Of a DNA stretch of 64,000 bases, positions 27,297 through 44,188 are shown one piece after another. Made by a program: the position numbers and the translations under genes. This stretch comes from Deltaproteobacteria bacterium (GTDB taxonomy: Bacteria > Desulfobacterota > Desulfobaccia > Desulfobaccales > 0-14-0-80-60-11): NCBI GenBank assembly GCA_021813445.1, contig JAKAKP010000059.1, forward strand, positions 20,002 to 84,001, in the 5' to 3' direction. The notes below the pieces were generated by a model. The model was not told where the DNA came from, made no database searches, and saw only the letters and a list, made by a program, of their open reading frames with translations. Position 1 is the stretch's first letter; the number at the start of each line of letters is the position of its first letter.

Positions 27297-28255
27297 AAAC
27301 GGCAAGCACTCTGGAAAACATACTGGCATCGGGAGAACTGGCAGTCACCTCCGAGTGCGGGCCGCCGCGGGGTGCCTTGCCGCAGAAGGTGCGGGAAAAG
27401 GCGGAACTGCTCCGGGGCTGTGTGGACGGGGTCAATGTCACCGACAACCAGACGGCCATGGTGCGCATGTCCAGCCTGGCCGCCTGTATCCTGCTGAAGC
27501 AGATGGGGCTCAATCCCATCCTCCAGATGGTCACCCGGGACCGCAACCGCCTGGCGATGCAGAGCGACATCCTGGGGGCATACTCCCACGGGATCGATAC
27601 CATGCTCTGCCTTTCCGGCGATCATCCCCGCTTCGGCGACCATGCTATGGCCGCCACGGTGCATGATATCGACTCCGTCCAGATGATCCGGATGGTGAAG
27701 GACATGCGGGATGAAGGGCTGTTCCAGGGCGGGGAAAAAATTGACGGCCCTCCCAAAATGTTTATCGGCGCCGCGGCCAACCCCTTCGCGGACCCCTTTG
27801 AGCTGCGAGTTTCCCGGTTGGCGAAAAAAGTAAAGGCCGGGGTGGATTTCATCCAAACTCAGTGCATTTACAACGTCGATAAATTCGAAAAATGGCTGCA
27901 AGGGGTGCGGGACCGCGGCCTGCATCAACAGGTCCACATCCTGGCCGGCATTACACCCATGAAATCGGTGGGCATGGCCCGCTACATGAAAAACAAGGTG
28001 CCGGGGATGGATGTGCCCGATGAGGTGGTGAAGCGCATGGGCGGGGTGCCCAAGGACAAGCAGGCTGAGGAGGGCATCAAAATTTGCCTGGAAACCATCG
28101 AGCGCCTGAAAGGCGTGGAGGGTGTCCGGGGATTTCATCTCATGGCGATTGAGTGGGAGCAGAAGGTCCCCGAGATAGTAGAAAGGGCGGGGCTTCTGCC
28201 GAGACCTGACGGTTTAAATGTGGGTGTCCAAAATGTACGAGGAGGCAAGTCATGA
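27293..28255 (+). CDS. metF: Methylenetetrahydrofolate reductase (MetF, MetV-associated type)
   Basis: VTSECGPPRG...VNVTDNQTAMVRMSSLA...MVTRDRNRLAMQSD...FIQTQCIYN. Start at ATG 27293 overlapping the metV stop. Confidence 0.9.
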   Translation: MKTASTLENILASGELAVTSECGPPRGALPQKVREKAELLRGCVDGVNVTDNQTAMVRMSSLAACILLKQMGLNPILQMVTRDRNRLAMQSDILGAYSHGIDTMLCLSGDHPRFGDHAMAATVHDIDSVQMIRMVKDMRDEGLFQGGEKIDGPPKMFIGAAANPFADPFELRVSRLAKKVKAGVDFIQTQCIYNVDKFEKWLQGVRDRGLHQQVHILAGITPMKSVGMARYMKNKVPGMDVPDEVVKRMGGVPKDKQAEEGIKICLETIERLKGVEGVRGFHLMAIEWEQKVPEIVERAGLLPRPDGLNVGVQNVRGGKS

Positions 28256-28641
28256 GTAACAAGGAACTTATTTTGGTAGTGGACGATGACCCCGATCTGG
28301 TGGATATGGTGGCCACAAAGCTTGAGGCCAATAACTACAGAACTGCAAAGGCTTACGACGGGTTTCAGGCCTGGGAGAAAATCAAGCAGGAAAAGCCTGC
28401 CATGGTGCTCCTGGATGTCATGATGCCGAACAAGGACGGCTATGTGACCTGCGAAGAGATCAAGAAGGACCCAAACTTTAAAGATATTGCCGTGGTGCTG
28501 CTCACTGCGGTGGTGGATAACCTGCCGACGACCACGTACACGCATCACTCAGGTCGCACGACCCCGGCGGATGACTTCATTCCGAAGCCCATAGACCTGG
28601 ATAAGCTTATGGGCATTGTCCAGGATAATTTGGGACGCTGA
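28252..28641 (+). CDS. Stand-alone response regulator receiver protein (CheY-like)
   Basis: LVVDDDPDLVDM...VLLDVMMPNKDGY...FIPKPID. Confidence 0.85.
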   Translation: MSNKELILVVDDDPDLVDMVATKLEANNYRTAKAYDGFQAWEKIKQEKPAMVLLDVMMPNKDGYVTCEEIKKDPNFKDIAVVLLTAVVDNLPTTTYTHHSGRTTPADDFIPKPIDLDKLMGIVQDNLGR

Positions 28642-28687: not shown

Positions 28688-30280
28688 TTGTCTTCACAGT
28701 CTCCTAGATCGAAGCCGATTGAGCCAAGGTTATCTATGGCCAGAGGAGCCGATGAAAAAAGCACCGGGATCGATTGGAGGTCGAGGGTATTCGATTCCCT
28801 ATCATTGCCCGCCCTGATCTTGGAGGCGAACCGGGTGGTTCTTGATGCGAATAAGAGCTTTTTGATGCAATACGGCATTAGTAAAGATGGGATTATCGGC
28901 CAGACCTGCCATGAATTCTTCTACCAGTCTGAAGATCCCTGTCCATATGAAACCTGCCCTCTTTCCAAAGTGCTGAAAGAAAAGACCGGACAGACGATCC
29001 TTAGATGCGTCAAGATTCCAGGCAGCAAAGAAAAATGGGAGGACCGAATCTTCTCGCCCATCCTGGATGATGCCGGCAAGGTTCAGTATATCATCGAAAA
29101 AATTCGAGACGTCACTCATATCAAGAGGCTGGAAAGAGAGCTTTCCGGAATCAAGGTATTTATGGAGAAGTTTGTCCAAAGCTCGATGAGCGCTATCGTG
29201 GCCGCTGACCGGAGAGGCAGGATCCTGCTGATGAACCCGGCTGCAGAAGAGCTCACCGGTTATACCTTCCCGGAGGCCCGGAGACGGGTCACGGTTCGAG
29301 ACCTTTACCCGCCGGGCCAGGCGAAAGAGATCATGGCAAAACTCAGGAGCGAAGCTTTTGGCGGAAAAGGCAGGTTACCGTGCAGCCAAACCATCCTGGT
29401 AAACGCCCAAGGGGAAGAGATCCCCGTGGAGTTAACCGCCGCCATAATCTATGAGGGTGAAAAAGAAGTGGCCACCATGGGCATCTTCAACGACCTCAGG
29501 GAGAAAATCGCTCAGGAGGAGAAGATTAAAGAGGTTTTGATGAGAGCGGCCAAGGCCGAGAAAATGGCTTCATTGGGTCAACTTGCCGCTGGAGTCGCCC
29601 ATGAGATCAATAACCCTTTAACTGGCATCCTTCTTTATGGGGGCCTGCTTTTGGAAGATTTACGCAGCGATCATCCCTGGCATCAGGATTTGCAGTCTAT
29701 CATTGATGATGCCAATCAATGCCGCAATATTGTCAAAAGCCTCCTTGCTTATAGCCGCCAGACCAGCGCCAATAAAGAGATCATAGACCTTAATGATTTG
29801 GTGGAGCAAAGCTTGAGCCTTATTCGGGATCAGAGTCTGTTTATCAATATCGAGGTAGTTAAAAAGCTGTCTGATGAAAAGATGCTGATCAGAGTGGACC
29901 GGAGCCAGCTCAATCAGGTGATTATTAATTTAGTCATCAATGCTGTTGACGCCATGGAACGAAAAGGAACCTTGACCCTCAAGACTTATTGGCATCTCCG
30001 GAAGAAGAAGGGGGCGGGAAAGAAAGAGGCGGCAGGTTTCGCTTACCTGGAAGTTGCCGATACCGGCTGTGGCATATCTGCAGAAAATCTTTCCCGGATA
30101 TTTGACCCTTTCTTCACGACCAAAGAACTGGGAAAGGGGACCGGCTTAGGTCTAAGCACCGCTTACGGCATTATCCATGAAAATGGCGGCACTATCTGGG
30201 TAAAAGAAACCAGTCCAAAGGGGAGTACCTTCATAGTGGAACTTCCCCTTTGCCAGGATGCAAACGGACATGAACTTTAG
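28688..30280 (+). CDS. PAS-PAS sensor histidine kinase (complete HisKA + HATPase_c)
   Basis: Cys-rich first PAS (GQTCHEFFYQSEDPCPYETCP). H-box GVAHEINNPLTGI, N-box VIINLVINAVDA, G1 DTGCGIS, G2 GKGTGLGLS. Start is uncertain (TTG 28688 or ATG 28736). Confidence 0.85.
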   Translation: MSSQSPRSKPIEPRLSMARGADEKSTGIDWRSRVFDSLSLPALILEANRVVLDANKSFLMQYGISKDGIIGQTCHEFFYQSEDPCPYETCPLSKVLKEKTGQTILRCVKIPGSKEKWEDRIFSPILDDAGKVQYIIEKIRDVTHIKRLERELSGIKVFMEKFVQSSMSAIVAADRRGRILLMNPAAEELTGYTFPEARRRVTVRDLYPPGQAKEIMAKLRSEAFGGKGRLPCSQTILVNAQGEEIPVELTAAIIYEGEKEVATMGIFNDLREKIAQEEKIKEVLMRAAKAEKMASLGQLAAGVAHEINNPLTGILLYGGLLLEDLRSDHPWHQDLQSIIDDANQCRNIVKSLLAYSRQTSANKEIIDLNDLVEQSLSLIRDQSLFINIEVVKKLSDEKMLIRVDRSQLNQVIINLVINAVDAMERKGTLTLKTYWHLRKKKGAGKKEAAGFAYLEVADTGCGISAENLSRIFDPFFTTKELGKGTGLGLSTAYGIIHENGGTIWVKETSPKGSTFIVELPLCQDANGHEL

Positions 30281-31619
30281 CAAACGGTCGTACAGCAATC
30301 AAGAAATCGGGCCGGGAAACCTGGTGCAGAAAATGGCGTTAATAGCCCATTCCTCACCCTCCATTCTGGTCATCGATGATGAAGAACATGTGCGGCAAGG
30401 CTGCCGCAAGGTACTCGTCCGGGATGGATATGAGGTGACCATCGCTGAATCCGGCGAAATCGGCCTCAGCCTTATTGAGCACCGGCATTTTGACATCATT
30501 CTTTTAGACCTGATGATGCCGAGCCTTTCCGGGTTCGATGTCCTGGCCCTGGTCAAGGCGCTGCATCCTGACACCATCATCATTGTCATCAGCGGTTACG
30601 CCACCTTTGAAAATTCCGTAGAAGTCATGAAACGGGGAGCCTTTGATTTCATCCCCAAACCTTTCTCTCCCGAACAATTACGCCTCCTTACCAGAAAAGC
30701 CATAGAGTATCTGAGAACCATGCAAGATATTGCCGATGAAAAGTCGCGGATGCGCGCGCTCATTAATCGGCTGACTGACGGGGTTATGGCCACTGATGCC
30801 GCCAAACGGATATTGCTGGCAAATCCGGCATTTTTGCGACTGGCCGGCTCCCGGGAAGTGCGAATTGTCGGCTGCCAAGTGGGCGAAGTCATCCAAAATA
30901 CCCATTTGGAAGAGATGATAGATCGGGCGCTGGCTTTGACCGGAACTGAACTGGCGGAACTGGTGGAAGAAATATGTCTTGACTCCGAGGCGGGACAGCC
31001 GCAGACAATTATAAGTGCCCGCTGTATTCCTTATATTGACCGGGCTGGCCGTAACATCGGCACCATCACGGTGCTCCATGACATCACGGCTTTGAAGCGC
31101 CTGGACCGCATCAAGTCAGAATTCGTCGCCATGGTCTCCCACGAGATAAGAAGTCCGCTGAATTCGGTCCTGGCCCAGATGAAAATCATCCTGGACGGCC
31201 TGGCTGGCGAGGTCACCCCGAAGCAACAGGAAATATTGAGCCGGGCCTCGGCCAAGGTCAATAGCCTGATAGCCCTCTCTTCAGAACTCCTGGACCTGGC
31301 CCGGATTGAGTCCGGTCTGATCAGCCAGGAAAGAGAACAACTCAACCTTGCCAATATCCTGGAGGATCAGGTGGCTTTTCATAATCCGGCGGCCCAAGCC
31401 AAGGGGATTTCCCTGGTGCTGGAGCCTTTGCCAAGACTTGAGCCGGTATTTGCCGACCGGGGCACCATGGAAGAGGTGTTCTCCAACCTCATCGCTAACG
31501 CCATCAACTATACGCCCGAGGGCGGCAGGGTGACCCTTTCCGCCGCCATGGAGAGCGGTTACCTCCGGGCCTCTGTGGCCGATAATGGCATCGGCATGGC
31601 CCCCGAAGACCTGGGCCGC
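30258..31619 (+). pseudogene. Hybrid response-regulator/PAS/histidine kinase truncated within the ATPase domain (fused in frame to the phage lysozyme)
   Basis: REC (ILVIDDEEH...ILLDLMMPSLSGF...FIPKPF), PAS, H-box VSHEIRSPLNSV, N-box NLIANAINYTPEGG, G1 DNGIGMAPEDLGR. The expected F-box and G2 (GxGLGL) are missing, and the reading frame continues into a lysozyme domain. Confidence 0.7.
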
Positions 31620-32075
31620 ATGCAGGAAATCATCCTGGCCTCGGCCCAAGAGTATCAATGGCCGCCGAAGATCATTGCCGGGATTATCAGCAGGGAATCC
31701 CGCTTTGGGCTGCTTCTGGACGGTGAGGGCAAGGGCGATGCCGGGCACGGGCACGGCCTGATGCAGATCGACGACCGGAGCTTCGGCGGCTGGCTGGCGG
31801 CAAACGACTGGCAGGACCCGGCCGTCAACATCCAAATGGGCGTCAAAATCCTCACTGACAAATATAACTACCTGGCCGGCCGCGGTCTCCTGGACGGCCT
31901 CAGCGATACGCAAGCCCAGCAGGCCGCGGTCGCGGCTTACAACTGCGGCGAGGGGAACGTCGCCAAGGTGCTCCAGGCCGGGGACGATATTGACAGCCGC
32001 ACCGCGGGCCGGAATTATTCGGCGGACGTCTTGGCCCGGGCCGAGCAATTCAGGGAGGTCTTCGCCGGGACATGA
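31620..32075 (+). CDS. Endolysin, goose-type lysozyme / lytic transglycosylase (GH23-like)
   Basis: IIAGIISRESRFG...GDAGHGHGLMQIDDRS...AAYNCGEGNV resembles the g-type lysozyme/SLT catalytic region. The own ATG at 31620 lies inside the fused ORF 30258-32075. Confidence 0.8.
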   Translation: MQEIILASAQEYQWPPKIIAGIISRESRFGLLLDGEGKGDAGHGHGLMQIDDRSFGGWLAANDWQDPAVNIQMGVKILTDKYNYLAGRGLLDGLSDTQAQQAAVAAYNCGEGNVAKVLQAGDDIDSRTAGRNYSADVLARAEQFREVFAGT

Positions 32076-32764
32076 AGATTCTTTCCCTCAATTTCTGTGT
32101 CACGCATCCCCGGCCCCGGGCGGAGCGGCTCAAGGCCCTGGCCGATTTTATCCACGCCAACGGGGTGGACGTGCTGCTCATGCAGGAAGGCGTGCGCTCC
32201 TGCCTGGTCTACGATACCGGGCGGCAGCTTAACCGGCTGCTGGGCCGCTCCTGGCAGCGCTTCGCCAAATCCAATATCGGCTGTCCTTTCTTTTGGGAGT
32301 TCCGGGTGGGCATCTTTTCCCGCTACCCGCTCCTGGAGACCTGTCATGCCGACCTGTCGGTTCCCATCAAAAAAAGCCTGCCCGATTCCCTGCCGCTGCC
32401 CTGGCGGGCCCACGCCGTGGGGGCCGTGATTTATACCCCGGAGTTCGGCCGCACACACCTGGTGGACGTCCACCTATCTTCCGGCCCCAAGACGCCCTCC
32501 GACCAGGTGGACCAGACCCGCAAGCTGCTGGCCTGGGCCGGCGGCCTGGAGAAGGCCGAGATGGCCATCCTGGGGGGCGACTTTAACTTCGGCGCGGGCA
32601 GCAGCAGCGATGTGTTGCTGGTGGAATCCGGTTATCAAGTGGCCGGGGAAGCGCCGCCGGACTTTATTTATACCGCCGGCGCCCGGGTGGTCTCGCGGCA
32701 GGTGGTGATGACGGACCATGAGATCACGGACCATGACGGGGCCGTGCTGGTGGAGGTGAAGTAA
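32072..32764 (+). CDS. Endonuclease/exonuclease/phosphatase (EEP) family protein
   Basis: EEP catalytic landmarks are present: DVLLMQEG (Glu), GGDFNF (Asp/Asn), TDHD (Asp-His). No signal peptide. Confidence 0.75.
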   Translation: MKILSLNFCVTHPRPRAERLKALADFIHANGVDVLLMQEGVRSCLVYDTGRQLNRLLGRSWQRFAKSNIGCPFFWEFRVGIFSRYPLLETCHADLSVPIKKSLPDSLPLPWRAHAVGAVIYTPEFGRTHLVDVHLSSGPKTPSDQVDQTRKLLAWAGGLEKAEMAILGGDFNFGAGSSSDVLLVESGYQVAGEAPPDFIYTAGARVVSRQVVMTDHEITDHDGAVLVEVK

Positions 32765-33021
32765 TGGGCCTACTCAATGACCATCGCCTGGTGGAGTTCA
32801 TTATTGACGATTCCACCGGCCATCTCTCGGCGTCCCGGGTCGGCCTGCTGGCCATGAACCTGGTGGCCGCGGTGGCCGGGATCTGGCTCCTCTTTAAGGG
32901 CAAGGACCCCACCACCCTGATTGCCGGGGTGGCCGCCACGGACGCCGGGGTTTACCTGGTGAACAGCGGCGCCCGGGTCTGGGGCCGGGCCAAGGAGATG
33001 TTAAAGGGAGGTATCGAATGA
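32764..33021 (+). CDS. Putative holin (two TM segments)
   Basis: 85 aa. TM1 LLAMNLVAAVAGIWLLF, TM2 LIAGVAATDAGVYLV, charged C-terminus. Lysis-cassette position. Confidence 0.55.
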   Translation: MGLLNDHRLVEFIIDDSTGHLSASRVGLLAMNLVAAVAGIWLLFKGKDPTTLIAGVAATDAGVYLVNSGARVWGRAKEMLKGGIE

Positions 33022-33296
33022 CCGAGCTTCTCTCATTGCTTCTGGGTCCCCTGGGCAAGGTCCTGGGGGTGGCGGTCTCCCTGGGAGGTCTCTATCTCTG
33101 GGGCAAATACCAAAAATCCCAAAAGGAGAAGGCCCAGGCCAAGGCCGAGGGCCTGCAAGCCCAGGTGGAAATTCAGGCAGGCCGGGAGGAGGTGCAGCAT
33201 GAAACGGCTCAGGCAGTGGAAGAAACCCGTGACCGGGTTGAAGCTGGCGATGCTGCCGGCGTGTCTGACGCTTTTAATAGCCTGCGGGACAAGTAA
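33018..33296 (+). CDS. Putative i-spanin (Rz-like)
   Basis: N-terminal TM (LLSLLLGPLGKVLGVAVSLGGLYLW) followed by a charged coiled coil. It contains the start of an overlapping lipoprotein gene. Confidence 0.6.
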   Translation: MTELLSLLLGPLGKVLGVAVSLGGLYLWGKYQKSQKEKAQAKAEGLQAQVEIQAGREEVQHETAQAVEETRDRVEAGDAAGVSDAFNSLRDK

Positions 33297-33507
33297 GCCG
33301 AACCTGGTTTTGCCCAAGCCTCCCATGCCGGAGCCCCCGGTGCTGCATTCGCAGCCCACCCCGCCGGCGCCACCGGCCGGGGCCAAGGGCGTCTGGTTTT
33401 CCCTGCCCGACGCCGGGGCTTTGAAAATTTACCTGGACAAGCTCAAAGGCAAGTGCCGGGAAGATGACGTGATCATCGACCGGGCCAATAAATACCTCAG
33501 CCGGTAG
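33199..33507 (+). CDS. Putative o-spanin (Rz1-like outer-membrane lipoprotein), overlapped architecture
   Basis: Signal peptide plus lipobox LLIAC|G, and a proline-rich mature part. It starts in the +1 frame inside the i-spanin gene and extends beyond it. Confidence 0.65.
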   Translation: MKRLRQWKKPVTGLKLAMLPACLTLLIACGTSKPNLVLPKPPMPEPPVLHSQPTPPAPPAGAKGVWFSLPDAGALKIYLDKLKGKCREDDVIIDRANKYLSR

Positions 33508-33518: not shown

Positions 33519-33950
33519 ATGGACGAATACCCCTGGATGCCCATAGCCCGCTCTTACCTGGGACAACATGAGGTCCCGGGCCCGGCCGCCAATCAATTCA
33601 TCGTGGAATGCCTGCGGGATTTCACCGACGTCGACCGGGCAATGGCCAAAAGCGATGAGACCGCCTGGTGCTCCGCTTTCGCCAACCGCTGCGTGGCTGA
33701 GGCCGGCCTGGAAGGCACCAATTCGGCTTGGGCTCGCTCCTGGCTGGATTGGGGGCGGGAGCCGGAAAACGATGAAGAATACGCGGGCGCCATTGTCGTC
33801 CTGGAACGCGGCCCCAACTCCGGACATGTGGGTTTCCTCAATGACTGGGGGGACGGCTGGGTTGAACTCCTGGGGGGCAATCAAGGCGATAGTGTGAGCT
33901 TGGCGAGGTTTTCCGATAGCCGGGTTTTGGGTTATCGAGTGCCGGTGTAG
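33519..33950 (+). CDS. TIGR02594-like / NlpC-P60-CHAP-like peptidoglycan hydrolase
   Basis: ...DETAWCSAFANRCV...GHVGFL...LGGNQGDSV, Cys/His arrangement typical of this phage-associated family. Confidence 0.65.
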   Translation: MDEYPWMPIARSYLGQHEVPGPAANQFIVECLRDFTDVDRAMAKSDETAWCSAFANRCVAEAGLEGTNSAWARSWLDWGREPENDEEYAGAIVVLERGPNSGHVGFLNDWGDGWVELLGGNQGDSVSLARFSDSRVLGYRVPV

Positions 33951-34533: not shown

Positions 34534-35034
34534 GTGGACGATAGACTTCCCAAAGAAGGGCGGGAGCATGCGCCCCAGACTTTTTTCAGAGCACAGGAGC
34601 TTTATATCCTTGACGGCTTCACTTATGACGAAGTGGCCACAGCTACGGGGGTGTCCCGGAGCCAAATACAGCGCTGGGCCACCAAGCACGGCTGGAAGTC
34701 CAAGCGAGACGAATACTTGGCGGACATGGGCTGCCTGCGTCTGGAGCATGTGGGTCTGATCCAGCGGTTGCAAAAGGAACTGAAAGACAAACTCGATGGC
34801 CAACTGCTTTTTGCTTACCGGGGGCTGGTGAGAGATTTCGTAGGCGATCAGAAAGCAGCCAAGATAAGCGACCCCCCGGTTTTGGATGTCGACCGCCCGG
34901 CGCTGTTCTTGGAAGACTTGAACTTCATCGCCACCTACCTGAAGGAAAAAGACCCCGAGGGTCTGAAGGCCTTAGCAAAAAATTTTGACGGTCTGGTGGC
35001 CCGCTTCAAAGCAGATCATGCGCAAACGGCCTAA
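34534..35034 (+). CDS. Putative terminase small subunit (Mu gp27/DUF1804-like HTH protein)
   Basis: HTH FTYDEVATATGVSRSQIQRWATKHGWKSKRDEY, directly upstream of and overlapping the large terminase. Confidence 0.55.
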   Translation: MDDRLPKEGREHAPQTFFRAQELYILDGFTYDEVATATGVSRSQIQRWATKHGWKSKRDEYLADMGCLRLEHVGLIQRLQKELKDKLDGQLLFAYRGLVRDFVGDQKAAKISDPPVLDVDRPALFLEDLNFIATYLKEKDPEGLKALAKNFDGLVARFKADHAQTA

Positions 35035-36547
35035 AATTACCGAATATCGTTTTGATCAATATGCCGAAAAGCTCCGCGCCTTCATCCAGGAGTCGGTCTC
35101 GCCCTTTGAGAACGATACTCCGGAAAAACAGCGGGAGCGGATCGATCGGGCCCGGCACGACAAGCTCTATTTCATGAGGACCTATCTGTCGCATTACTTC
35201 ACCAAGCCCTTCGGGGATTTTCATCAAGAGTGGGCAGATTTGGCCGACCTGGTGAATGAGGTTGTATTGGTTGCAGCGCCTCGGGAGCATGCCAAGAGCA
35301 CCTTCTTTGCTTTCGGCGACAAGCTTTACAAGATTTGTTTTGCCCTGAAACATTTCATGGTCATTCTCTCAGATACCAATGAGCAGGCCACCACCTTCAC
35401 TTTGGCGATTGCTCTGGAACTCGAGGAAAACCTGCGGCTAAAACATGACTTTGGCAAGCTGCTCTGGCCGGTCTGGAATAAGAGCAGTTTTTATACCACC
35501 AATGGCCTGTGGGTTCTGGCCCGGGGCAAAAAAGACAAGGTCCGGGGCTTGCGCCACCGGCAGTATCGGCCAGATGACGTGACGGTAGATGATATTGAGA
35601 ACGATATCAATGTCCTCAATCCTAAGTTGATCAAGGCCTGCATTGATTTTCTCCAGGGCACGGTCATTGGCTCGATGGGGGAAGATTACATCTTCTTGAT
35701 GGTAGGCAACCTCTTCCACGCCAAAAGCGTCTTATCGCAACTTATTGCTATGAAGGACGATGAGACTGGCGAACCTCTTTATGTCTCCAGGGTCTATCAG
35801 GCCATCATCGATGAGGGCACCGCGACGGAGCGCTCCCTATGGCCGGGACATTGGCCCTTGGAACGCCTCAAGGCCAAGCGCAAGAAGATGGGGTTATTCA
35901 ATTTTAACCGGGAGATGATGAACCGTTGCGGCGCCGAAGATAGCCCTTTCCGCGAATCCTGGTTTAAGTTTCACAACCTTATAGAACTCGTGGTCCCCCG
36001 GCTCCTCATAGTTTCCTTTTGTGACCCAAGCGCCAAGCAGGGGGAAGCCAATGATTATAAGGCCATAGTCACGGTAGGACTGGAACGTGACAAAATGCTC
36101 TTTCGCTGTCTCCATGCCTGGATTCGGCATGCCTCGCCTTTGGAGATGTTTGCGGCTGCCTATCGTATCCATGACGATTACGGCGGGCCGATGGGCATTG
36201 AAGAAAATATGCTGGAGGATTTTCTCCATGAGGCCATTTATTCCTATGCCCGACAGGTGGGGCGCTATCTTCCCTGGGTGCCGGTAAGACATCAAACCAA
36301 TAAAGAAAGCCGTATTATCAGTACCTTGGCCTACCTGGTGGAGCACAGCAAGATCACTTTTGAAAAAGGCCAGAGCGATCAGGGCCTGCTGCGGGAGCAA
36401 CTGATATATATCCTCAACAAGACTGTTCGCGATGATGGCCCAGACGCCCTGGAAGGGGCGGTGCACCTGCTTCAGGGTGGTGGCGGCGAGACCACCATCT
36501 TGAGCGGCATGCCCCGGCAGGCCGCAAATATGATGCGCGGTTACTAA
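35018..36547 (+). CDS. Terminase large subunit
   Basis: ATPase region (VLVAAPREHAKST...; acidic DDVTVDDIEND) and C-terminal nuclease region (SFCDPSAKQGEANDYKAIV...). Size and position fit. Start ATG 35018 preferred over 34985. Confidence 0.8.
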   Translation: MRKRPKITEYRFDQYAEKLRAFIQESVSPFENDTPEKQRERIDRARHDKLYFMRTYLSHYFTKPFGDFHQEWADLADLVNEVVLVAAPREHAKSTFFAFGDKLYKICFALKHFMVILSDTNEQATTFTLAIALELEENLRLKHDFGKLLWPVWNKSSFYTTNGLWVLARGKKDKVRGLRHRQYRPDDVTVDDIENDINVLNPKLIKACIDFLQGTVIGSMGEDYIFLMVGNLFHAKSVLSQLIAMKDDETGEPLYVSRVYQAIIDEGTATERSLWPGHWPLERLKAKRKKMGLFNFNREMMNRCGAEDSPFRESWFKFHNLIELVVPRLLIVSFCDPSAKQGEANDYKAIVTVGLERDKMLFRCLHAWIRHASPLEMFAAAYRIHDDYGGPMGIEENMLEDFLHEAIYSYARQVGRYLPWVPVRHQTNKESRIISTLAYLVEHSKITFEKGQSDQGLLREQLIYILNKTVRDDGPDALEGAVHLLQGGGGETTILSGMPRQAANMMRGY

Positions 36548-36552
36548 GGATC

Positions 36553-38088
36553 ATGAGACTCTGGGTCAGCCCGACAAAATGCATTGAGCTGGAGGAACAG
36601 CCTGCGGTCCAGTCGCTTTACCGGGAGATCGCCTCCCGCCAGACGGCCTATGACTGGTACGGGTATATCGGATTGTTGCCCGACCCCGACCCGGTCCTGC
36701 GCAAGCGGGGCGACGGCGTCCAGGTCCTGGAATCGCTCACGGCCGACGCCCACCTCATGAGCGTCATCCAGACCCGGAAGCTGGGGACGCTGAAGCGGGA
36801 ATACCGCTGGGAACCCGGTTCGCTCTCCGGAGAGAAGCCCTCCCGCCAGGCCAAGAATCTTTGTGAGGCCCTGCGGCAAGACCTGGAGCGGGTGGACCTC
36901 TTCCAGCTCATCTCCCAGGTCCTGGACGCCCCGCTGTACGGCCTGACCCCCATCGAACTTTTGTGGGAGCCGGGCAGCTCGGGGATGCGGCTCCGGGATT
37001 TGCGGGCCTTGCCGTGCCGCTGGTTCGGGTTCGATGAATACAACAACCCGAAGTTCCTCAGCTTCAACAACCCCTGGAACGGCGAGGCCCTGCCTTTCGG
37101 CAAGTTCGTTTTGGCCCGGCATTTCCCCAGTTATGACAACCCTTACGGCCTGCGGCTGCTGTCCCGCTGTTTCTGGCCGGTGACCTTCAAAAAAGGCGGC
37201 ATCAAATTCTGGGTCCAGTTCGCCGAGAAGTACGGCATGCCGTTTTTGGTGGGGAAATTCCGCCCTGGCGCGGGGGCAGCCGAGCAGCAGGAGATGCTGG
37301 CCAAACTGTCCCAGATGGTGCAGGACGCGGTGGCGGTGATCCCGGAAGGCAACTCGGTGGAGATCAAGGAAGGCCTGGCCTCGGGCCGCACCTCCTCGGC
37401 GGACAACTATGGGCGCCTGATCGCCCTGATGGATGCGGAGATCTCCAAGGTGATCATGGGGCAGACCCTCACCGCGGAAATCGGGGACAAGGGCTCCTAT
37501 GCGGCGTCCCAGACCCATGAGAATGTCCTGGAGCAATACCAGGAAGCCGACCAGGTCCTGGTCAAAACCGCGATGGAAGAAATCGCCTGGCTCTATGGCC
37601 AGGTGAACGCCCCCGGAGTGCCGACCCCGGTTTTTCAATGGTACGAGGCGGAAGATCCGCAAAAAGATATGGCCGACCGGGACAAGACACTGTCGGAGAC
37701 CGGGGTCAAATTTACGAAATCATATTACGTCCGGAAGTACGGCCTCCAGGAGGACGATTTTGAGATAGGTGAGATTCCGGCGCCCGGCGGCCAGGATAAT
37801 CCCCCGGGGTTCGCCGAGGGCAAGGGCTTCACCCCGGATCAGCAGGCCATCGAAGACCTGGTGGCGGCAACCCTAACCCAAGGGGTTAAGGGCAGCCAGG
37901 AGATGGCGCAAAAGATCATGGCGGTTATCGACAAGGCCGACAGCTTTGAGGCCCTCCAGGAAGGTCTGGCCCTGGCCTTCCCGGACATGGCCGGTGCGGA
38001 CTTCGAAAACGTCTTGAGCCAGGCAATGCTCGCCACGGACCTGTGGGGCCGCTTCCAGGTCAGGCAGGAGGGGGCGGATGGCCGTTGA
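36553..38088 (+). CDS. Portal protein (Mu gp29/DUF935-like)
   Basis: About 510 aa, immediately after the terminase and before the MuF gene. Sequence is reminiscent of DUF935 portals (call from memory). Confidence 0.7.
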   Translation: MRLWVSPTKCIELEEQPAVQSLYREIASRQTAYDWYGYIGLLPDPDPVLRKRGDGVQVLESLTADAHLMSVIQTRKLGTLKREYRWEPGSLSGEKPSRQAKNLCEALRQDLERVDLFQLISQVLDAPLYGLTPIELLWEPGSSGMRLRDLRALPCRWFGFDEYNNPKFLSFNNPWNGEALPFGKFVLARHFPSYDNPYGLRLLSRCFWPVTFKKGGIKFWVQFAEKYGMPFLVGKFRPGAGAAEQQEMLAKLSQMVQDAVAVIPEGNSVEIKEGLASGRTSSADNYGRLIALMDAEISKVIMGQTLTAEIGDKGSYAASQTHENVLEQYQEADQVLVKTAMEEIAWLYGQVNAPGVPTPVFQWYEAEDPQKDMADRDKTLSETGVKFTKSYYVRKYGLQEDDFEIGEIPAPGGQDNPPGFAEGKGFTPDQQAIEDLVAATLTQGVKGSQEMAQKIMAVIDKADSFEALQEGLALAFPDMAGADFENVLSQAMLATDLWGRFQVRQEGADGR

Positions 38089-39301
38089 GCTGAAGGCCCT
38101 GCCGCCCCGGGAAGCCATCCGGTTTTGGGCCGCCAAAGTCCCCATGCCGGCCCAGGAGTTTTACACCCTGGCCGCGGAGCAGCGGGTCAACGCCTTTGCG
38201 GTTTCGGGGATCGCCAAGCTGGATCAGCTCCTGGCCGTGCACGACTCTTTAGGACGGGCCATGCACGAAGGGGCGAGCTTCCAGTCCTGGAAAAAGAGCC
38301 TGCCGGACCTGTGGAAATCCAAGGGCTGGGTGGGGCCCAATGCCTACCGGGTGAGCAATATCTTCCACACCAACATCCAAACGGCTTATAACGTTGGGCG
38401 CTACCGGCAGATGATGGCCGTGGCCAGCGAGCGGCCCATCTGGACCTACATCGGGGTCAATGACCGCCGGCAATCGCAGATATGCCGGCGGCTCAACGGC
38501 CGGAGCTACCCCTATGACCATGAGTTCTGGAAGACCTATTATCCGCCGAACCATTTCCGCTGCCGGAGCACGGTCAGCAGCCAGGGCGTGGCCCAGGCCG
38601 AAAGAGCGGGAGTGAAGGTCTTGGAAGAAATTCCGGCAGATGTAGTGCAGCCCGAGAACGGTTTTGACACCAATCCGGGGCAGACCCATTACCAGCCGGA
38701 CCTCTCCAAGTATCCAGCCCTCTTCAAACAGCAGTTTTTGGAGGGCATGAATAAATTTTACAGCCCCGACACCCTGCCGGGCGTGACCCGGGGGCAGTTC
38801 GGGGAGTTGCTCAAGAAGACCCTGCGCCAGGCGGATTTACAGGACATGCAAACCCTGGTCTGGGCCGAAGAGCAGGGCGGCGTCGGCGGTTACCGGAATT
38901 GGGTGAATCAGGTTTTGAGCCGGCAAGCAGCCACAGGAGAGGTTTATCCGGCAGGAAATCTGCCGCTAAGGGTTTTGGGCAAGCTCCAGCAGCAGCCGCG
39001 GCTGGCCCTGGTGGTGGTGGATGATCAGGCGCTGCTGCACATGGTGCGAGACCTGAAAAAGTCCGCCCTGACTGCCGCGGAAATTGCGTCCATCCCCGAG
39101 AAATTTGCCGGCGCGGACTGGTATCGGGACAAAGAAGATCCGGCTTTGCTGCTGACCTGGCTGAGGTCGGGGGAAAACTGGATAAAGGTGGTAATCCGGC
39201 TGGATCAGAAGATCGGCAAGGGCATTGCTAACCGCATTGTCTCGGCGGGGGTGGTCAAGGCGCACAACCTCGAAGTGGGCGGCAGGTATGGAAAGTTATA
39301 G
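38078..39301 (+). CDS. Head morphogenesis protein, Mu F / SPP1 gp7 family, with about 200-aa C-terminal extension
   Basis: MuF core NAYRVSNIFHTNIQTAYNVGRYRQM...WTYIGVNDRRQSQICRRLNGRSYPYDHEFWKTYYPPNHFRCRSTV. Confidence 0.8.
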   Translation: MAVELKALPPREAIRFWAAKVPMPAQEFYTLAAEQRVNAFAVSGIAKLDQLLAVHDSLGRAMHEGASFQSWKKSLPDLWKSKGWVGPNAYRVSNIFHTNIQTAYNVGRYRQMMAVASERPIWTYIGVNDRRQSQICRRLNGRSYPYDHEFWKTYYPPNHFRCRSTVSSQGVAQAERAGVKVLEEIPADVVQPENGFDTNPGQTHYQPDLSKYPALFKQQFLEGMNKFYSPDTLPGVTRGQFGELLKKTLRQADLQDMQTLVWAEEQGGVGGYRNWVNQVLSRQAATGEVYPAGNLPLRVLGKLQQQPRLALVVVDDQALLHMVRDLKKSALTAAEIASIPEKFAGADWYRDKEDPALLLTWLRSGENWIKVVIRLDQKIGKGIANRIVSAGVVKAHNLEVGGRYGKL

Positions 39302-39436: not shown

Positions 39437-40300
39437 ATGGATTGTATGGATTGGGTGGAGATTTTCCGGACCGGGGAACATACCGACAGCGCCGGCCGGA
39501 CGCGGCTCTGGACGGAGGCGGACCTGGATAAGGTGGTGGCCGGCTACGATCCCGGCCAGCATGAGGCCCCGGTGGTCATCGGCCACCCCCAGAATAACGC
39601 CCCGGCCTATGGCTGGGTGGAGGCCGTGAAACGGGCGGGCGCTACCCTCCTGGCCAAGTTCAGGCAGGTGGAGCCGGCCTTCAGGGAAATGGTCCAGGCC
39701 GGGCGCTTCAAGAAACGGAGCGTCTCGTTTTACCCGGACGGCACCCTGCGCCACGTGGGCTTCTTGGGAGCCATGCCTCCGGCCGTCAAAGGGTTGAAAG
39801 ACGCGGCCTTCCAGGAGGAGGAGGGGTGCTCGGAATATGAGGAAAACCTGCCGACCCAGGCAAAAAAGGAGAGTCCCATGACTGAGGAAGAATTTCAGAG
39901 AAAGCTGGCGGAAGAGCGGGAAAAGCGGGAATTCGCCGAGGCCGAAACCAAGAAGGAAAAGGCCCGGGCCGACCAGGCCGAGGCAAACTTCTCCGAAACC
40001 GAGCGCAAACGGGTGCGCACGGAAATTGAGAATTTTGTGGAGGGCGGCATCAAAGAGGCCAAAATCCTGCCGCTCTGGAAGGAAAAGGGCCTGGTGGAAT
40101 TCATGCTGATGCTGTCCGGGCAGGACGGCGAATACGAATTCGCCGAAGGCCAGAAGCTCACGGCCGCCAAGTGGTTCCGGGATTTCCTGGAGAGCTTCAG
40201 CCAGCACCCACTGTTCAAGGAAATGGCCCGCCCGGCGGAAGACGGCAAGGGCGGCGATGACAAGCCCATTAACTTCCAAGAACTGACCAAGTTCGTCTAA
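39437..40300 (+). CDS. Capsid scaffolding/protease-like protein (Mu I / P2 gpO-like)
   Basis: The N-terminal domain resembles gpO/Mu-I family proteins. The central part is a Glu/Lys-rich coiled coil. Position is before the decoration and major capsid genes. Confidence 0.55.
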   Translation: MDCMDWVEIFRTGEHTDSAGRTRLWTEADLDKVVAGYDPGQHEAPVVIGHPQNNAPAYGWVEAVKRAGATLLAKFRQVEPAFREMVQAGRFKKRSVSFYPDGTLRHVGFLGAMPPAVKGLKDAAFQEEEGCSEYEENLPTQAKKESPMTEEEFQRKLAEEREKREFAEAETKKEKARADQAEANFSETERKRVRTEIENFVEGGIKEAKILPLWKEKGLVEFMLMLSGQDGEYEFAEGQKLTAAKWFRDFLESFSQHPLFKEMARPAEDGKGGDDKPINFQELTKFV

Positions 40301-40315
40301 GAGGAGAGCCAAGCC

Positions 40316-40900
40316 ATGACGATACAAGCCAATCTCGGGACACAGGCCTTTAACGAAGAACTGGTCATCGCCCAGGGACATGAGGTCCAGGTCCTGGGGC
40401 GCAAACTCAAGACCAACCAGGGGACGCTCAAGGCCGGAACCCTGGTGGCCCTGAACGCCAGCCGGGAAGTGGTGCCCTACGCCTCGGCCGACCATGTGAT
40501 CGGCACCGGTGATGCAGCGACCAAGGACTTTTCCCACAGCCTGGACCAGTACCCCATCGAGGCCGGGTCGGTGGAGGTTACGGACGGCACGGAGACCTTC
40601 AGCGATGATTTTAACGGCCGGCTCACCGGTTCGGCCGGCGGCACCGGCCTGGTGAACTATGAGACCGGCGACGTCAAGGTGTCCTTTAACGCCGCCCCGG
40701 CCAATAATGCGCCGGTTACGGCCACCTGCAAGAACCGCCTCAAGGGAGTCTTGCAGCGGGAAGTGGACACCACCAAAGAGGGCTCCGGCCTGGTGATTGT
40801 GCACGGCGCGGTGGTGGCCGCGGCCCTGAAGGTGGGCGTCGTGGCGCCGTCTGCGGCAACCCTGGATCTGTTGGAAACGCTGGGGATTTATCCCCTCTAA
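40316..40900 (+). CDS. Head decoration protein (lambda gpD-like) with inserted domain
   Basis: Position immediately upstream of the major capsid gene. N- and C-terminal segments resemble the gpD family (LKAGTLVALN...GLVIVHGAV). Confidence 0.5.
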   Translation: MTIQANLGTQAFNEELVIAQGHEVQVLGRKLKTNQGTLKAGTLVALNASREVVPYASADHVIGTGDAATKDFSHSLDQYPIEAGSVEVTDGTETFSDDFNGRLTGSAGGTGLVNYETGDVKVSFNAAPANNAPVTATCKNRLKGVLQREVDTTKEGSGLVIVHGAVVAAALKVGVVAPSAATLDLLETLGIYPL

Positions 40901-40912
40901 GGAGGACAGCCA

Positions 40913-41905
40913 ATGTTGATCGTTAATCTGCGCACCTTTTTCACTCCCCAGGCCATTGCCCAACGGCTGCAGGCCCTGCCCCCCATCAAATCGCCCACGA
41001 TGGACCTGATCTATCCGGGCCGCAGTCAGCACCCCCTGGCGGTCCTGGGGGTGGATGAAATCTCCGAGGTCGCCCTGACCGTGCCGGTGGTGCGCCGGGG
41101 CTCGCCCTCGACCCCGGTGGTGACCGACGCCCGGGAGATCAGCTATATCGAGCCTCTACCTCTGCGGCCGTCCACCACGCTGACCGCGGTGGACCTCAAC
41201 AATTTCAAGCTCCTGGACAATTCCGGCAGGGACGTGTGGGTGTCCGCCAAGATGGATATCCTGCGGCGCATCGTACACCGCAGCACTGAGGCCTTGTGTG
41301 CCCAATCCCTTACCGGCACCATCACCTACCCGGTGAAGCTCCAGGGCGGCGGTTACGACTCCTACCAGGTGGTCTTCGGGACCCCGCAAAGTTACGTCCC
41401 GGCCACGGCCTGGGACAACGCCCAGGCCAAGATTACCGATATCTTCAAGACCTTCACGGAAATGCAGGTGCTCCTGCAGGAGGCCGGCTACGGCGGCCAG
41501 GTGGAAATCTGGGCCGGCAAAACCGCGTTTTACGGCCTGATGGCCCTGGCCGAGAAGGTCACCAGCACCGCCCGCATCCGGGTGGAAATCTCGGCGGAGG
41601 GCGTGTTTGTCGGGAATTACCTGGTGAAGCTCCGGGCCGAAACCTACAAGAACCCGGAGACCGGGCTGTTCGTGCAGATCGTTCCGGACGACAAGATCGT
41701 CATGGTGGCCCAGGACGCCAATCACCGGCTGTTCTACTGCGCGGTGGACGACCTGGACGCCAACCTGGTGCCCATGCCCTTCTTCGTCAAGCCCATTGAA
41801 CAAAAGGACCCCAGCGGCATCAAGCTGGTGGCGGAATCGAAACCCCTGCCGGTGCCGGTGCCCAAGGCCATTTGCTGGGCGCAGGTGACCAATGTTCAGG
41901 CGTAA
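40913..41905 (+). CDS. Major capsid protein (lambda gpE-like family)
   Basis: 330 aa. Position and overall similarity to gpE-type capsid proteins (by-eye comparison from memory). Confidence 0.7.
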   Translation: MLIVNLRTFFTPQAIAQRLQALPPIKSPTMDLIYPGRSQHPLAVLGVDEISEVALTVPVVRRGSPSTPVVTDAREISYIEPLPLRPSTTLTAVDLNNFKLLDNSGRDVWVSAKMDILRRIVHRSTEALCAQSLTGTITYPVKLQGGGYDSYQVVFGTPQSYVPATAWDNAQAKITDIFKTFTEMQVLLQEAGYGGQVEIWAGKTAFYGLMALAEKVTSTARIRVEISAEGVFVGNYLVKLRAETYKNPETGLFVQIVPDDKIVMVAQDANHRLFYCAVDDLDANLVPMPFFVKPIEQKDPSGIKLVAESKPLPVPVPKAICWAQVTNVQA

Positions 41906-41956
41906 ACAGGCTCAGGCCGCAGCTTAAGGCTGCGGCCTGAAACGGGAGAGCAGGCC

Positions 41957-42373
41957 ATGCCGTATGCCAGCCAAGCAGACATTATCGACCGTTACGGCGA
42001 GGACGCCCTTTATGCCCTGGCGGACCGGGACCGGGACGGCACCCTGGATGAGGAGGCCATCGGCCGCGCCCTGGATGACGCCACCGCGGAAATCGACGGC
42101 TATCTGGCGGCCCGCTACCCTCTGCCCCTGACGGTAGCTCCCAAGATCATCGTCATTCTCTGTGTCGATATCGCCCTTTACCGGCTCTCCCCGGATCATG
42201 GGACGGAGGAGCGGCGCAAGCGCTATGAGGACGCGGTGCGGATGCTGAAGCTGATCTCCGAGGGGAAGGTGAGCCTGGGCATTAAGGAGCCCGAGGCGCC
42301 CATCGAACGCCCGGAGATTGGCGTGGCCACGCGGCCGCAAATCTTTTCTCCAGGCGTTTTGGACGAGTACTAA
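41957..42373 (+). CDS. Mu gp36-like protein (DUF1320)
   Basis: MPYASQADIIDRYGEDALYALADRD...EIDGYLAARYPLPL, typical DUF1320 N-terminus. Confidence 0.75.
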   Translation: MPYASQADIIDRYGEDALYALADRDRDGTLDEEAIGRALDDATAEIDGYLAARYPLPLTVAPKIIVILCVDIALYRLSPDHGTEERRKRYEDAVRMLKLISEGKVSLGIKEPEAPIERPEIGVATRPQIFSPGVLDEY

Positions 42374-42376
42374 AGC

Positions 42377-42835
42377 GTGGCTGCCGGAATTGCGCTCAAG
42401 CTCGATCTGGAGGGCCTGTCAGGGCTCGAAAAGCAGCTTAACGCCCTGGCCGCGTTTGGCGAAACCGGCAGAAAGACCTTGCTGGCCAATATCGGCGAAG
42501 AAGTCATCACTCAAACCCTCCAGCGTTTTCAGGAAGAGAAGGGGCCGGACGGCACTCCCTGGAAGAAGTCCCAACGGGCCGCGGCCCAGGGCGGGCTGAC
42601 CCTGACGGATTCGGCCCAACTGCGGGACTCCATCAATAGAAACCTGGGGGCCGATTTTGTGGAAGTGGGCACCAACAAGATTTACGGCCCCATTCACCAA
42701 TTGGGGGGTGATGCCGGCCGGGGCCATGCGGTCCATCTGCCGGCCCGGCCGTATCTCCCGGAAAACATCGAAGAGGTGAAGTCCCTGGATAAGCTGGTGG
42801 ATGATTTAATCGTCAGGATGGTGGGCGGGCTATGA
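42377..42835 (+). CDS. Phage virion morphogenesis protein (Mu G / tail completion S-like)
   Basis: FQEEKGPDGTPWKKS...LTDSAQLRDSI...NKIYGPIHQLGG. GTG start. Confidence 0.75.
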   Translation: MAAGIALKLDLEGLSGLEKQLNALAAFGETGRKTLLANIGEEVITQTLQRFQEEKGPDGTPWKKSQRAAAQGGLTLTDSAQLRDSINRNLGADFVEVGTNKIYGPIHQLGGDAGRGHAVHLPARPYLPENIEEVKSLDKLVDDLIVRMVGGL

Positions 42836-43371
42836 CTTTAGACGATCTGCGCCAGGCCATAGCGGACCAGATCAAGGCGAAGCTCCCGGAGCTGCGGGAT
42901 TGCCGCGCTCACGCCGGCAGGTTCGATCTGGGCGAATTGCGCCGGGTGGCCACCAAGACCCCGGCGGTCTTCATCGCCTGCCTGGGCGTGAAGGAATCGG
43001 AGCTGCGGGAAAGCGGTGAATGCGACGCCGACCTGGTCATGGCTGCCTTCGTGGTGACCTCGGACGTCAGGGGTCTTCCCCGCGATTTGTCGGCCTTAAA
43101 CATTATCGAATTTCTCCTTCTTTACCTCCCCGGGAAGCAGTGGGGGCTGGGCGGCAAGGCCTTCCAGGCCCGGGAGGTGCAGGCTCAGAATATGTATGCC
43201 GGCGACGTGGATAAGGCCGGCATCGCCTTGTGGGCGGCCACCTGGCGGCAGAAGGTGCGGCTGGGAACATCCGTCTGGGATGAAACCGGCGTTCTGCCGA
43301 GCCATGTCTATGTCGGGATCGCTCCCGAAATCGGCGCCGGGCATGAGTCCGATTATCGGGAGATCACCTGA
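42832..43371 (+). CDS. Mu gp37-like protein (DUF1834)
   Basis: Size and position after the virion morphogenesis gene. ATGA-type overlaps on both sides. Confidence 0.55.
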   Translation: MTLDDLRQAIADQIKAKLPELRDCRAHAGRFDLGELRRVATKTPAVFIACLGVKESELRESGECDADLVMAAFVVTSDVRGLPRDLSALNIIEFLLLYLPGKQWGLGGKAFQAREVQAQNMYAGDVDKAGIALWAATWRQKVRLGTSVWDETGVLPSHVYVGIAPEIGAGHESDYREIT

Positions 43372-43856
43372 TGGCCGGGGAAAAAGATTTCGCCCTCACC
43401 GAGATGGACCGCAGGCTGGCCAATATCGTGCGCCTGGGCACCGTGGAAGAGGCCGATTATGCCCAGGCCCGGGTGCGGATACGCTGCGGCGATATGCTCA
43501 CCGGCTGGCTGCCCTGGCTGACCGGCCGGGCCGGCAAGGACCGGGACTGGTGGGCCCCGGATCTCGGCGAGCAGGTCATGGTGCTCTCGCCCTCGGGCGA
43601 TCCGCTGCAAGGGGCCGTGCTCTTCGGGGTTTACCAGGACAGCGCCCCCCAGCCGGAGACGGACGTCAACAAGCGCACGGTAGTCTTCGAGGACGGCACC
43701 ACGGTCACTTATGACCGGAAAAACCATAAGCTCGACGTCCTCATCAAGGGGGACGTCGCGGTCAAGGTGACGGGCAAGGTCGATATGCAAGTCGAAGGCG
43801 AAGCGAAGGTCAAGGCGAAATTCATTCACCTTAATCCGCCGAAGGAGGAAAGCTGA
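43371..43856 (+). CDS. Baseplate assembly protein V (spike, gpV)
   Basis: VRLGTVEEADYAQARVRIRCGDMLTGWLPWLTGRAGKDRDWWAPDLGEQVMVLSPSGD, gpV OB-fold signature. Confidence 0.85.
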   Translation: MAGEKDFALTEMDRRLANIVRLGTVEEADYAQARVRIRCGDMLTGWLPWLTGRAGKDRDWWAPDLGEQVMVLSPSGDPLQGAVLFGVYQDSAPQPETDVNKRTVVFEDGTTVTYDRKNHKLDVLIKGDVAVKVTGKVDMQVEGEAKVKAKFIHLNPPKEES

Positions 43857-44188
43857 TGCCGCTGCCGTATGCCGATGAGGCTCTCATCACCGCGCCGCTG
43901 GAGGCGGTCCTGGTGGAACTCGCCGGGATCAAGTCGGAAATCGCCGGGCTTAGAGCCGTTATCGAGCACATCCATACCGGGCATTGGCACCTGGCGAACG
44001 CCACGGTGCCGAAGGCGGCGCTCCTGGTGAACGAATACATGGGCGGAGAAGACCTGGACGGCAACGGCCTGGTCTATGGCCGGGATTTTCATATCGCCCC
44101 GGATTGCCCGGCCAAGCCGCCCATGCTGAAAAGCCTGCCCAATGAGGGTACACCCATGAGCTGGACCGAATACCTGGGGAGTCTCTAA
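43856..44188 (+). CDS. Hypothetical protein between spike and PAAR genes
   Basis: 110 aa, translationally coupled on both sides. No family recognised. Confidence 0.4.
   Translation: MPLPYADEALITAPLEAVLVELAGIKSEIAGLRAVIEHIHTGHWHLANATVPKAALLVNEYMGGEDLDGNGLVYGRDFHIAPDCPAKPPMLKSLPNEGTPMSWTEYLGSL

Follow-up and report, generated by a model that had tools for sequence, protein, structure and literature searches.

The stretch of DNA described here (64 kb of contig JAKAKP010000059.1 from a Deltaproteobacteria bacterium, referred to below as the window) contains an open reading frame (ORF), located on the plus strand at positions 30258-32075, in which a host histidine kinase runs in frame into a phage lysozyme. 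This chimeric ORF was very probably created by one illegitimate-recombination deletion that both grounded a Mu-like prophage and inactivated the kinase. The chimera is, most likely, an incidental product of this event and not an adaptation. The features discussed are listed in Table 1.

The ORF encodes 605 amino acids and has no internal stop codon. Pfam recognizes a Response_reg domain at residues 36-142, a PAS domain at 164-281 and a HisKA domain at 286-353 (E 1.8e-14), followed by an HATPase_c match at residues 400-464 that covers only positions 2-56 of the 111-position profile and an SLT match at residues 459-573 (45.3 bits, relative to a cutoff of 21.3). An initial annotation of the window, made from the letters alone, had described exactly this arrangement: REC, PAS and HisKA domains, then an HATPase domain that reaches the G1 box and reads through without a stop. 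Its term "hybrid histidine kinase" is loose, as the REC domain is N-terminal. No other protein with this combination of domains was found among 2,752 homologues. An exact look-up of the 605-residue ORF gave no match; the database holds a 601-residue version that starts at an internal ATG (30270). The start at 30258 is plausible, as tblastn alignments of the fusion with several orthologous loci reach query residue 1. Both candidate starts (30258 and the publicly annotated 30270) overlap the 3' end of the upstream kinase gene, which ends at 30280 and shares 23 nucleotides (nt) with the longer ORF.

The kinase half of the fusion has approximately 120 close homologues, all of them stand-alone REC-PAS-HisKA-HATPase_c proteins of 491-510 amino acids that are at most 81% identical to it. 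These orthologues run on for 57 residues past the motif "...DNGIGMAPEDL(G/S)(R/H)". The fusion has no counterpart to this stretch and so lacks the F box ("FNRFYR") and the G2 box/ATP lid ("GTGLGL"), both reported as missing in the initial annotation. The HisKA domain retains the phospho-acceptor His motif "SHEIRSPLN" (H box). In an alignment with HK853 (PDB 2c2a), the kinase half covers residues 14-193 of 258 only: the dimerization and histidine phosphotransfer domain with its His motif aligns well, as do the N box and the G1 box, whereas a lysozyme domain takes the place of the F box, the G2 box/ATP lid and the final strands and helix of the Bergerat fold. A structure was predicted with AlphaFold2 from a shallow alignment of 35 sequences consisting of the fusion, kinases trimmed at the breakpoint, and lysozyme homologues. 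In agreement with the truncation proposed earlier, no complete ATP-binding domain is predicted in the fusion upstream of 31620: the remnant of the catalytic and ATP-binding (CA) domain (residues ~354-447) has a predicted local distance difference test (pLDDT) score below 50, compared with approximately 88-97 for the REC and PAS domains. This low confidence is specific to the CA remnant, because the same alignment rows give confident REC and PAS domains. A functional HisKA-type kinase is defined by a complete HATPase_c domain with N, G1, F and G2 boxes, and the fusion does not have one; its kinase moiety would be unable to bind ATP and hence to autophosphorylate.

In phmmer searches, the second half of the fusion matches the solved goose-type lysozymes 3mgw, 4g9s and 153l with E values of about 1e-14 to 1e-13, making the earlier label of "g-type" lysozyme a fair one. 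The nearest free-standing lysozyme (P0122, 163 amino acids) is 87% identical. Eight free-standing homologues are 161-163 amino acids in length and start with "M-IR-EEFDLCR(E/Q)MK-IILASAQ". The fusion joins the lysozyme at the Met of "MK/MQ", such that it lacks the first 12 native codons together with the ribosome-binding site and the promoter region. The Met that follows the junction (31620) is an internal residue of the lysozyme rather than its start, a small correction to the initial annotation: native relatives start 12 codons earlier. The catalytic Glu lies in the motif "SRESRFG", which is invariant across the homologues in the 35-sequence alignment, and corresponds to residue 480 of the fusion. 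The AlphaFold2 model assigns the lysozyme domain pLDDT values of 94-98, suggesting that this domain probably still folds, with its catalytic Glu kept. No strongly hydrophobic, transmembrane-like segment is apparent in the hydropathy profile of the lysozyme half.

Comparison of the window with related DNA resolves the junction almost to the nucleotide. Homology of the host DNA to ten orthologous loci stops at 31617-31618 (blastn), while homology to the phage contig L022 (37 kb; the closest relative with flanking sequence) begins at 31620. The latter position corresponds to L022 position 10037, 36 nt into the L022 lysozyme gene. These end points bracket the join to approximately 2 nt (~31618/31620), with the crossover itself ambiguous within 31605-31621. 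Around the breakpoint, the parents are alike over an imperfect 12-nt patch (GACCTGKGCCRC) whose copies are shifted by one codon, and they have the dinucleotide "AT" in common: the kinase DNA reads GAC CTG RGC CAY|ATT and that of the L006 lysozyme reads GAC CTG TGC CGC CAG|ATG. Similarity of this kind fits illegitimate, microhomology-assisted recombination. No Mu left-end sequence is present at the junction. The in-frame outcome is a one-in-three chance and needs no special explanation.

A junction of this type could also be produced artificially, if kinase and phage sequences were joined in silico during assembly or binning or by a chimeric read. Metagenome-assembled genomes (MAGs) are the source of the sequence, and GC content rises across the junction from ~0.52-0.55 to ~0.63, although such a step is expected at a true host-phage boundary. 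This possibility, which had been flagged in the initial annotation, is contradicted by the recurrence of the junction. The same 30-mer occurs on at least 14 contigs, which stem from different sequencing runs and were built by at least two pipelines; they include two third-party MAGs at NCBI (GCA_027348275.1 and GCA_027404795.1) and several Logan/ENA assemblies of different SRA runs (among them SRR13240876 and SRR13299515). The 30-mer was recovered in 4/4 retrieved loci, which have 0-3 differences from the window over up to 21.8 kb, and the 601-residue fusion protein forms a two-member database cluster. Furthermore, no intact allele of either partner gene is recorded: a collection of 5.8 billion proteins contains no intact kinase above 81% identity and no intact lysozyme above 87% identity. 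Because the junction recurs across runs and assemblers, and because the sequence shared by the parents (at most ~12 nt) is far below any assembler k-mer, a computational chimera is excluded for practical purposes, and we assign it a negligible probability. All of the fusion-bearing contigs belong to one clonal population; for this reason, there is no evidence of evolutionary conservation of the fusion.

To the right of the junction, the phage part is, by its gene content, the late half of a Mu-like myovirus. Mu-type head genes are present (Pfam Portal_Mu, Phage_Mu_F and Phage_Mu_Gp36), and the tail region contains Pfam matches to sheath, PhageMin_Tail, Phage_GPD and Tail_P2_I. The genes between 39437 and 56622 include those for a major capsid E-like protein, a Mu Gp36-like protein, sheath, tape measure, the baseplate hub GPD and a P2 I-like protein. 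The late genes are 86-95% identical to those of L022, with the exception of a mosaic segment containing the second hydrolase and the terminases. In L022, the genes immediately preceding the lysozyme gene encode GemA, Gam, a PAPS-reductase-like protein, an HI1489-like protein, an IstB/MuB-like ATPase, Dam and others. No Pfam match to a Mor/C-type late activator was found upstream of the L022 lysozyme gene. When the 19 early-region proteins of L022 were used as tblastn queries (a set without the DDE transposase, as the L022 locus ends before that gene), no homologues were detected in the 64-kb window. The proposal that the whole early region had been removed is therefore upheld (0/19 early genes, as opposed to late genes at 86-95% identity). 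With the junction falling within the lysozyme gene, the left phage end must be missing too.

Host DNA is missing as well. The left flank is collinear with orthologous loci in uncultured "Deltaproteobacteria"/Desulfobaccales-type MAGs, with the gene order TusA, MTHFR, HdrA-like, FlpD/MvhD, DUF5981, MTHFR, response regulator, kinase and REC-kinase. These relatives carry no phage at the orthologous locus. In all 12 relatives whose sequence continues beyond the kinase, the gene that follows is highly conserved and encodes a Fer4+CCG (HdrC/B-like) protein. This gene is absent from the whole 64-kb window. A tblastn search of the same 64 kb with the missing kinase C-termini returned no kinase 3' fragment; the sole match was the paralogous upstream kinase (30065-30247). 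The right flank of the prophage encodes a CxxCxxCC/YkgJ-like protein, a ClC channel, a cytidylate-kinase-like protein and a TauE-like protein, none of which turned up in the 10 kb that follow the kinase in 14 relative loci. Because the right-flank genes never neighbour the kinase in relatives, the prophage was originally located some distance from the kinase and not inside it.

These observations distinguish between a deletion and a simple insertion, in which a transposable phage would have landed in the kinase gene and left the kinase 3' end beyond its other end. Mu-like phages are generally known to integrate near-randomly, often within genes, and the phage described here carries Mu-type portal, F and Gp36 genes. 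However, phage sequence at the junction starts 36 nt into the lysozyme gene rather than at a phage end, and there is no early region. Neither the kinase 3' fragment nor the Fer4+CCG gene is found to the right of the phage or elsewhere in the window, and in none of the 14 relative loci do the right-flank genes neighbour the kinase. Simple insertion is accordingly given almost no weight. The initial annotation had favoured a deletion and had found no kinase fragment to the right of the phage; both statements agree with the losses recorded here (57 kinase codons, 12 lysozyme codons, the Fer4+CCG gene and the kinase 3' end). A deletion could in turn have been mediated by the phage transposase, as an adjacent deletion of the Mu type arising during replicative transposition. 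Transposable phages are generally known to delete DNA beside the prophage, but such events have one boundary exactly at a phage end, which is retained. In this case, the phage has lost its left end along with at least 10 kb of its DNA, and the break falls in a late gene at a patch of microhomology, such that a transposase-mediated event is extremely unlikely.

The favoured explanation, a single illegitimate deletion, can be set out as follows. A Mu-like temperate myovirus would have been integrated some distance downstream of the two-component block of an uncultured Desulfobacterota-type bacterium. One end of the deletion would have fallen in the ATP-binding domain of the REC-PAS kinase and the other 36 nt inside the endolysin gene (codon 13), the first late gene of the prophage. 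On the host side, the event would have removed the 57 3' codons of the kinase, at least the Fer4+CCG gene, and an unspecified amount of further host DNA. On the phage side, it would have removed the left end and the entire early/middle region, with its regulatory and transposition-replication functions, the late-promoter region and the start of the lysozyme gene. By chance, the broken ends would have been joined in frame, giving the 605-residue chimeric ORF. The grounded prophage would no longer be able to replicate, transpose or run its late programme alone, and this grounding is the likely reason that the deletion allele persisted. Deletion-driven grounding, the favoured survival of lysogens with non-inducible prophages, and the continued erosion of such prophages by deletions have been described previously (PMC6379469).

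Several points weigh against this explanation. A search of metagenomes for the pre-deletion context of the right-flank CxxCxxCC gene returned one relative, which is too distant to indicate the original insertion site or the size of the host loss (62% identity, on a 5.9 kb contig, without synteny), and the right phage end is placed no more closely than the interval 58255-58394. As the search consisted of the 64 kb window and protein-level look-ups, the kinase 3' end and the Fer4+CCG gene could sit elsewhere, in which case they would have been translocated rather than lost. The one-codon offset of the shared patch leaves the crossover ambiguous, and a two-step event is possible. The fusion contigs represent one near-identical population, meaning that their recurrence proves the junction and is silent on selection. 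Finally, an otherwise intact and tightly packed late region behind a host operon is also what domestication of the prophage would predict.

Evidence of further decay is found at the right end of the prophage. In the relatives L024 and L025, an intact Avd-template repeat (TR)-reverse transcriptase (RT) cassette of a diversity-generating retroelement (DGR) lies downstream of the target gene. In the window, the target gene is followed by a remnant in which Avd is cut after ~40 codons and joined to the last ~100 residues of the RT (matching residues 241-288 of 8ub7). Homology of the window to L024 stops at 57957. The RT catalytic core is deleted, and no repeat of the variable region that could serve as the template repeat was found in the window. 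A second, internal deletion has thus destroyed the DGR of this prophage, which shows that the prophage is decaying.

The position of the remaining phage genes raises the question of their expression. From the response regulator gene (28252) to the end of the Mu F-like gene (39301), neighbouring genes either overlap or are separated by no more than 46 nt; a wider gap, of 135 nt, first occurs at 39301. No convincing plus-strand terminator was identified between the kinase operon and the phage genes in a scan that did not rise above shuffled background. The same applies to the promoter scan, and both are given little weight. With genes packed this closely and no clear terminator, expression from the host operon could plausibly read through into the lysis genes, as the initial annotation had proposed. 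The host operon is the only apparent expression route for the lysozyme and the lysis genes coupled to it, because the upstream region of the lysozyme gene itself is gone. Such expression would probably occur at a low, tolerated level. Access of the ~67 kDa, probably dimeric, kinase-tethered lysozyme to the cell wall depends on the holin. Wang, Deaton and Young reportedly showed in 2003 (J Bacteriol 185:779), using a lambda R-beta-galactosidase endolysin fusion, that canonical holin holes pass very large cargo. By analogy, this suggests that a canonical holin could in principle release a dimeric kinase-lysozyme chimera. The engineered lambda protein is said to be, like the chimera, a soluble endolysin fused to a large oligomeric cytoplasmic protein; the partner in the present case is N-terminal, natural and accidental.

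It is conceivable that the truncated prophage has been selected as a host-controlled module (GTA [gene transfer agent]-like, tailocin-like, or serving regulated autolysis or vesiculation), with the two-component operon driving its first operon and the fusion forming part of this wiring. The late genes, which span ~26 kb from the fusion across the tail genes, are intact, tightly packed and all in one orientation; they include a full lysis cassette; and no convincing terminator lies between the kinase operon and the phage genes. There is also precedent in accounts of lysis modules of defective prophages that are used by their hosts, such as DLP12 (as presented in PMC7918800) and the maltocin endolysin (as presented in PMC13393414). 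Conversely, the fusion occurs in one clonal population only and is shared by no diverged lineage, a conserved kinase has been destroyed, a neighbouring gene conserved in 12/12 relatives has been removed, and the DGR has decayed. Moreover, the later late-gene units lie behind the 135-nt gap and, to judge from Mu biology, would probably need the lost phage activator. Selection for such a module is distinctly improbable. A more specific form of the idea is that the deletion placed the lysis cassette and the head and tail genes under the host two-component promoter, such that the signal sensed by that system would cause lysis of a subpopulation or the release of particles or vesicles, as an early stage of domestication. 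Control of this kind is rated as very unlikely, because the fusion is known from one clone only, conserved host genes are lost, and parts of the prophage are already being lost. If it were true, the kinase-tethered lysozyme would be made and prophage domestication would have been caught in the act, within an operon belonging to a methylene-tetrahydrofolate (THF) reductase/heterodisulfide-reductase-like cluster.

The illegitimate deletion favoured here has parallels among well-characterized elements. In the cryptic prophages DLP12, Rac, e14 and Qin of E. coli K-12, as in the element described here, functions in regulation, replication and integration-excision have been deleted while late or lysis blocks are kept, and further internal deletions accumulate (PMC6379469). 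The lysis module of DLP12 is, according to the account in PMC7918800, still used by the host. In contrast to these lambdoid elements, the prophage in the window derives from a Mu-like transposable myovirus, keeps its whole ~26 kb late region, and is known from one uncultured population; in addition, its deletion ends inside a host gene, giving an in-frame host-phage chimera. The genome of phage Mu is arranged with the early region first, followed by lys, packaging, head and tail genes, and L022 likewise has GemA, Gam and MuB-like genes upstream of its lysozyme gene. As in Mu, the late region in the window opens with the lysis cassette, followed by terminase, portal and F. The window differs from Mu in having no L022-type early genes (0/19) and no left end, and in carrying a DGR, now dead. 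The endolysins also differ: Mu gp22 is a signal-anchor-release endolysin, whereas the lysozyme described here is a GH23 goose-type enzyme without a strongly hydrophobic, transmembrane-like segment.

The locus adds one more case to a familiar process in which prophages are grounded by deletion and decay; the in-frame chimeric ORF is a less common side effect. It is an ordinary example of bacteria disabling their resident viruses, and the fusion is not a new signalling architecture. Its value is that of a case resolved to the base pair, in which one deletion would have immobilized a transposable prophage, inactivated a host signalling gene and created a chimeric ORF. It also gives a textbook-style picture of how the prophage of an uncultured anaerobe is grounded, and long-standing questions would come into play only if the lysis or particle genes proved to be host-regulated. 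With respect to annotation, caution is warranted: the 601-605 amino acid "response regulator/kinase/SLT" protein is a deletion scar.

Table 1. Features of the window in the region of the kinase-lysozyme fusion and the truncated prophage.
Feature	Position	Strand	Basis
Host response regulator, first gene of the two-component block	28252..28641	+	Pfam Response_reg (E 6e-22); syntenic in relatives
Host PAS-PAS-HisKA-HATPase_c kinase, intact	28688..30280	+	Pfam; gene spacing
Kinase-derived part of the fusion: REC, PAS, HisKA, and HATPase_c up to the G1 box (DNGIGMAPEDLGR)	30258..31619	+	Pfam; C-termini of orthologues; blastn; 2c2a alignment; pLDDT
Deletion junction; kinase sequence GACCTGGGCCGC meets the lysozyme at ATG	31605..31621	+	DNA comparison with 10 kinase loci and 2 lysozyme loci
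Lysozyme-derived part of the fusion (GH23, goose-type/SLT)	31620..32075	+	Pfam SLT; P0122; L022 DNA; PDB goose-type lysozymes; pLDDT
Endonuclease/exonuclease/phosphatase-family gene	32072..32764	+	Pfam Exo_endo_phos (E 4e-13); 89% identical to L022 gene (10489-11181)
Holin candidate, 85 amino acids, hydrophobic membrane segment	32764..33021	+	Hydropathy; 92% identical to L022 orf85; position
Rz-like i-spanin, N-terminal transmembrane segment followed by a charged helical tail	33018..33296	+	PHROG 1026/312 "Rz-like spanin"; hydropathy
o-spanin candidate, lipoprotein with lipobox LIAC (putative function)	33199..33507	+	Lipobox and signal-like segment; 95% identical to L022 orf86
CHAP-domain peptidoglycan hydrolase	33519..33950	+	Pfam CHAP; PHROG 1259
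Packaging and head assembly: small terminase-like HTH protein, large terminase, Mu-type portal, Mu F-like	34534..39301	+	Pfam; PHROG; 89-95% identical to L022
Rest of head and contractile tail, including fibre-region ORFs	39437..56622	+	Gene tables; Pfam; ORF list
DGR target protein, C-type-lectin/FGE-sulfatase fold, C-terminal variable region, intact	56671..57768	+	Pfam FGE-sulfatase; homologous targets in L024 and L025
Dead DGR remnant: N-terminal part of Avd joined to RT tail	57835..58254	+	PDB 8ub7; L024 and L025 cassettes
Interval with the right phage-host boundary, between RT remnant and host CxxCxxCC gene	58255..58394	.	
First host gene to the right of the prophage, CxxCxxCC/YkgJ-like	58395..59315	-	Pfam CxxCxxCC

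The lysis cassette has an unusual member, the Exo_endo_phos gene. It is located between the endolysin and the holin candidate, as it is in L022, and it is translationally coupled to the endolysin, its start overlapping the stop codon of the fusion (ATGA). No family match was found for the 85-residue holin candidate, which is assigned from its position and membrane character. The gene for the o-spanin candidate overlaps that of the i-spanin in another reading frame. The CHAP hydrolase is a mosaic replacement: the segment 33519-36547 (corresponding to 11940-15155 of L022) contains this gene, two small ORFs and a different pair of small and large terminases, while L022 encodes an M15 peptidase and a Terminase_6-type large subunit at the same position.

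One of the fusion-bearing MAGs (GCA_027348275.1, L001) differs from the window at three positions (21500, 21984 and 31764), each a C-to-A change. The change at 31764 replaces Gln with Lys in the invariant "GLMQID" motif of the lysozyme. Relaxed selection was considered as a reading of this substitution and rejected: a sequencing or assembly error is likelier, because all three differences in that MAG are C-to-A.

Within the interval that holds the right phage-host boundary, a motif at 58345-58370 (CGTTTTCGGCCCCTTCA; TTTTCCGTTTTCGGCCCCTTCA) resembles the terminal transposase-binding end of Mu. The likeness is unconfirmed and was not used. No second copy of the motif scored above chance in the window, and its three exact matches in viral contigs are unrelated, with no common flanking homology.

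The host cluster to the left of the fusion (~20270-30280) encodes TusA, MTHFR, a 1016-residue HdrA-like flavoprotein, FlpD/MvhD, DUF5981, a second MTHFR and the two-component genes, and in the 12 relatives with sequence past the kinase it is closed by the Fer4+CCG gene that is lost here. In its composition, this cluster appears to resemble the MetFV-HdrABC-MvhD type of methylene-THF reductase complex.

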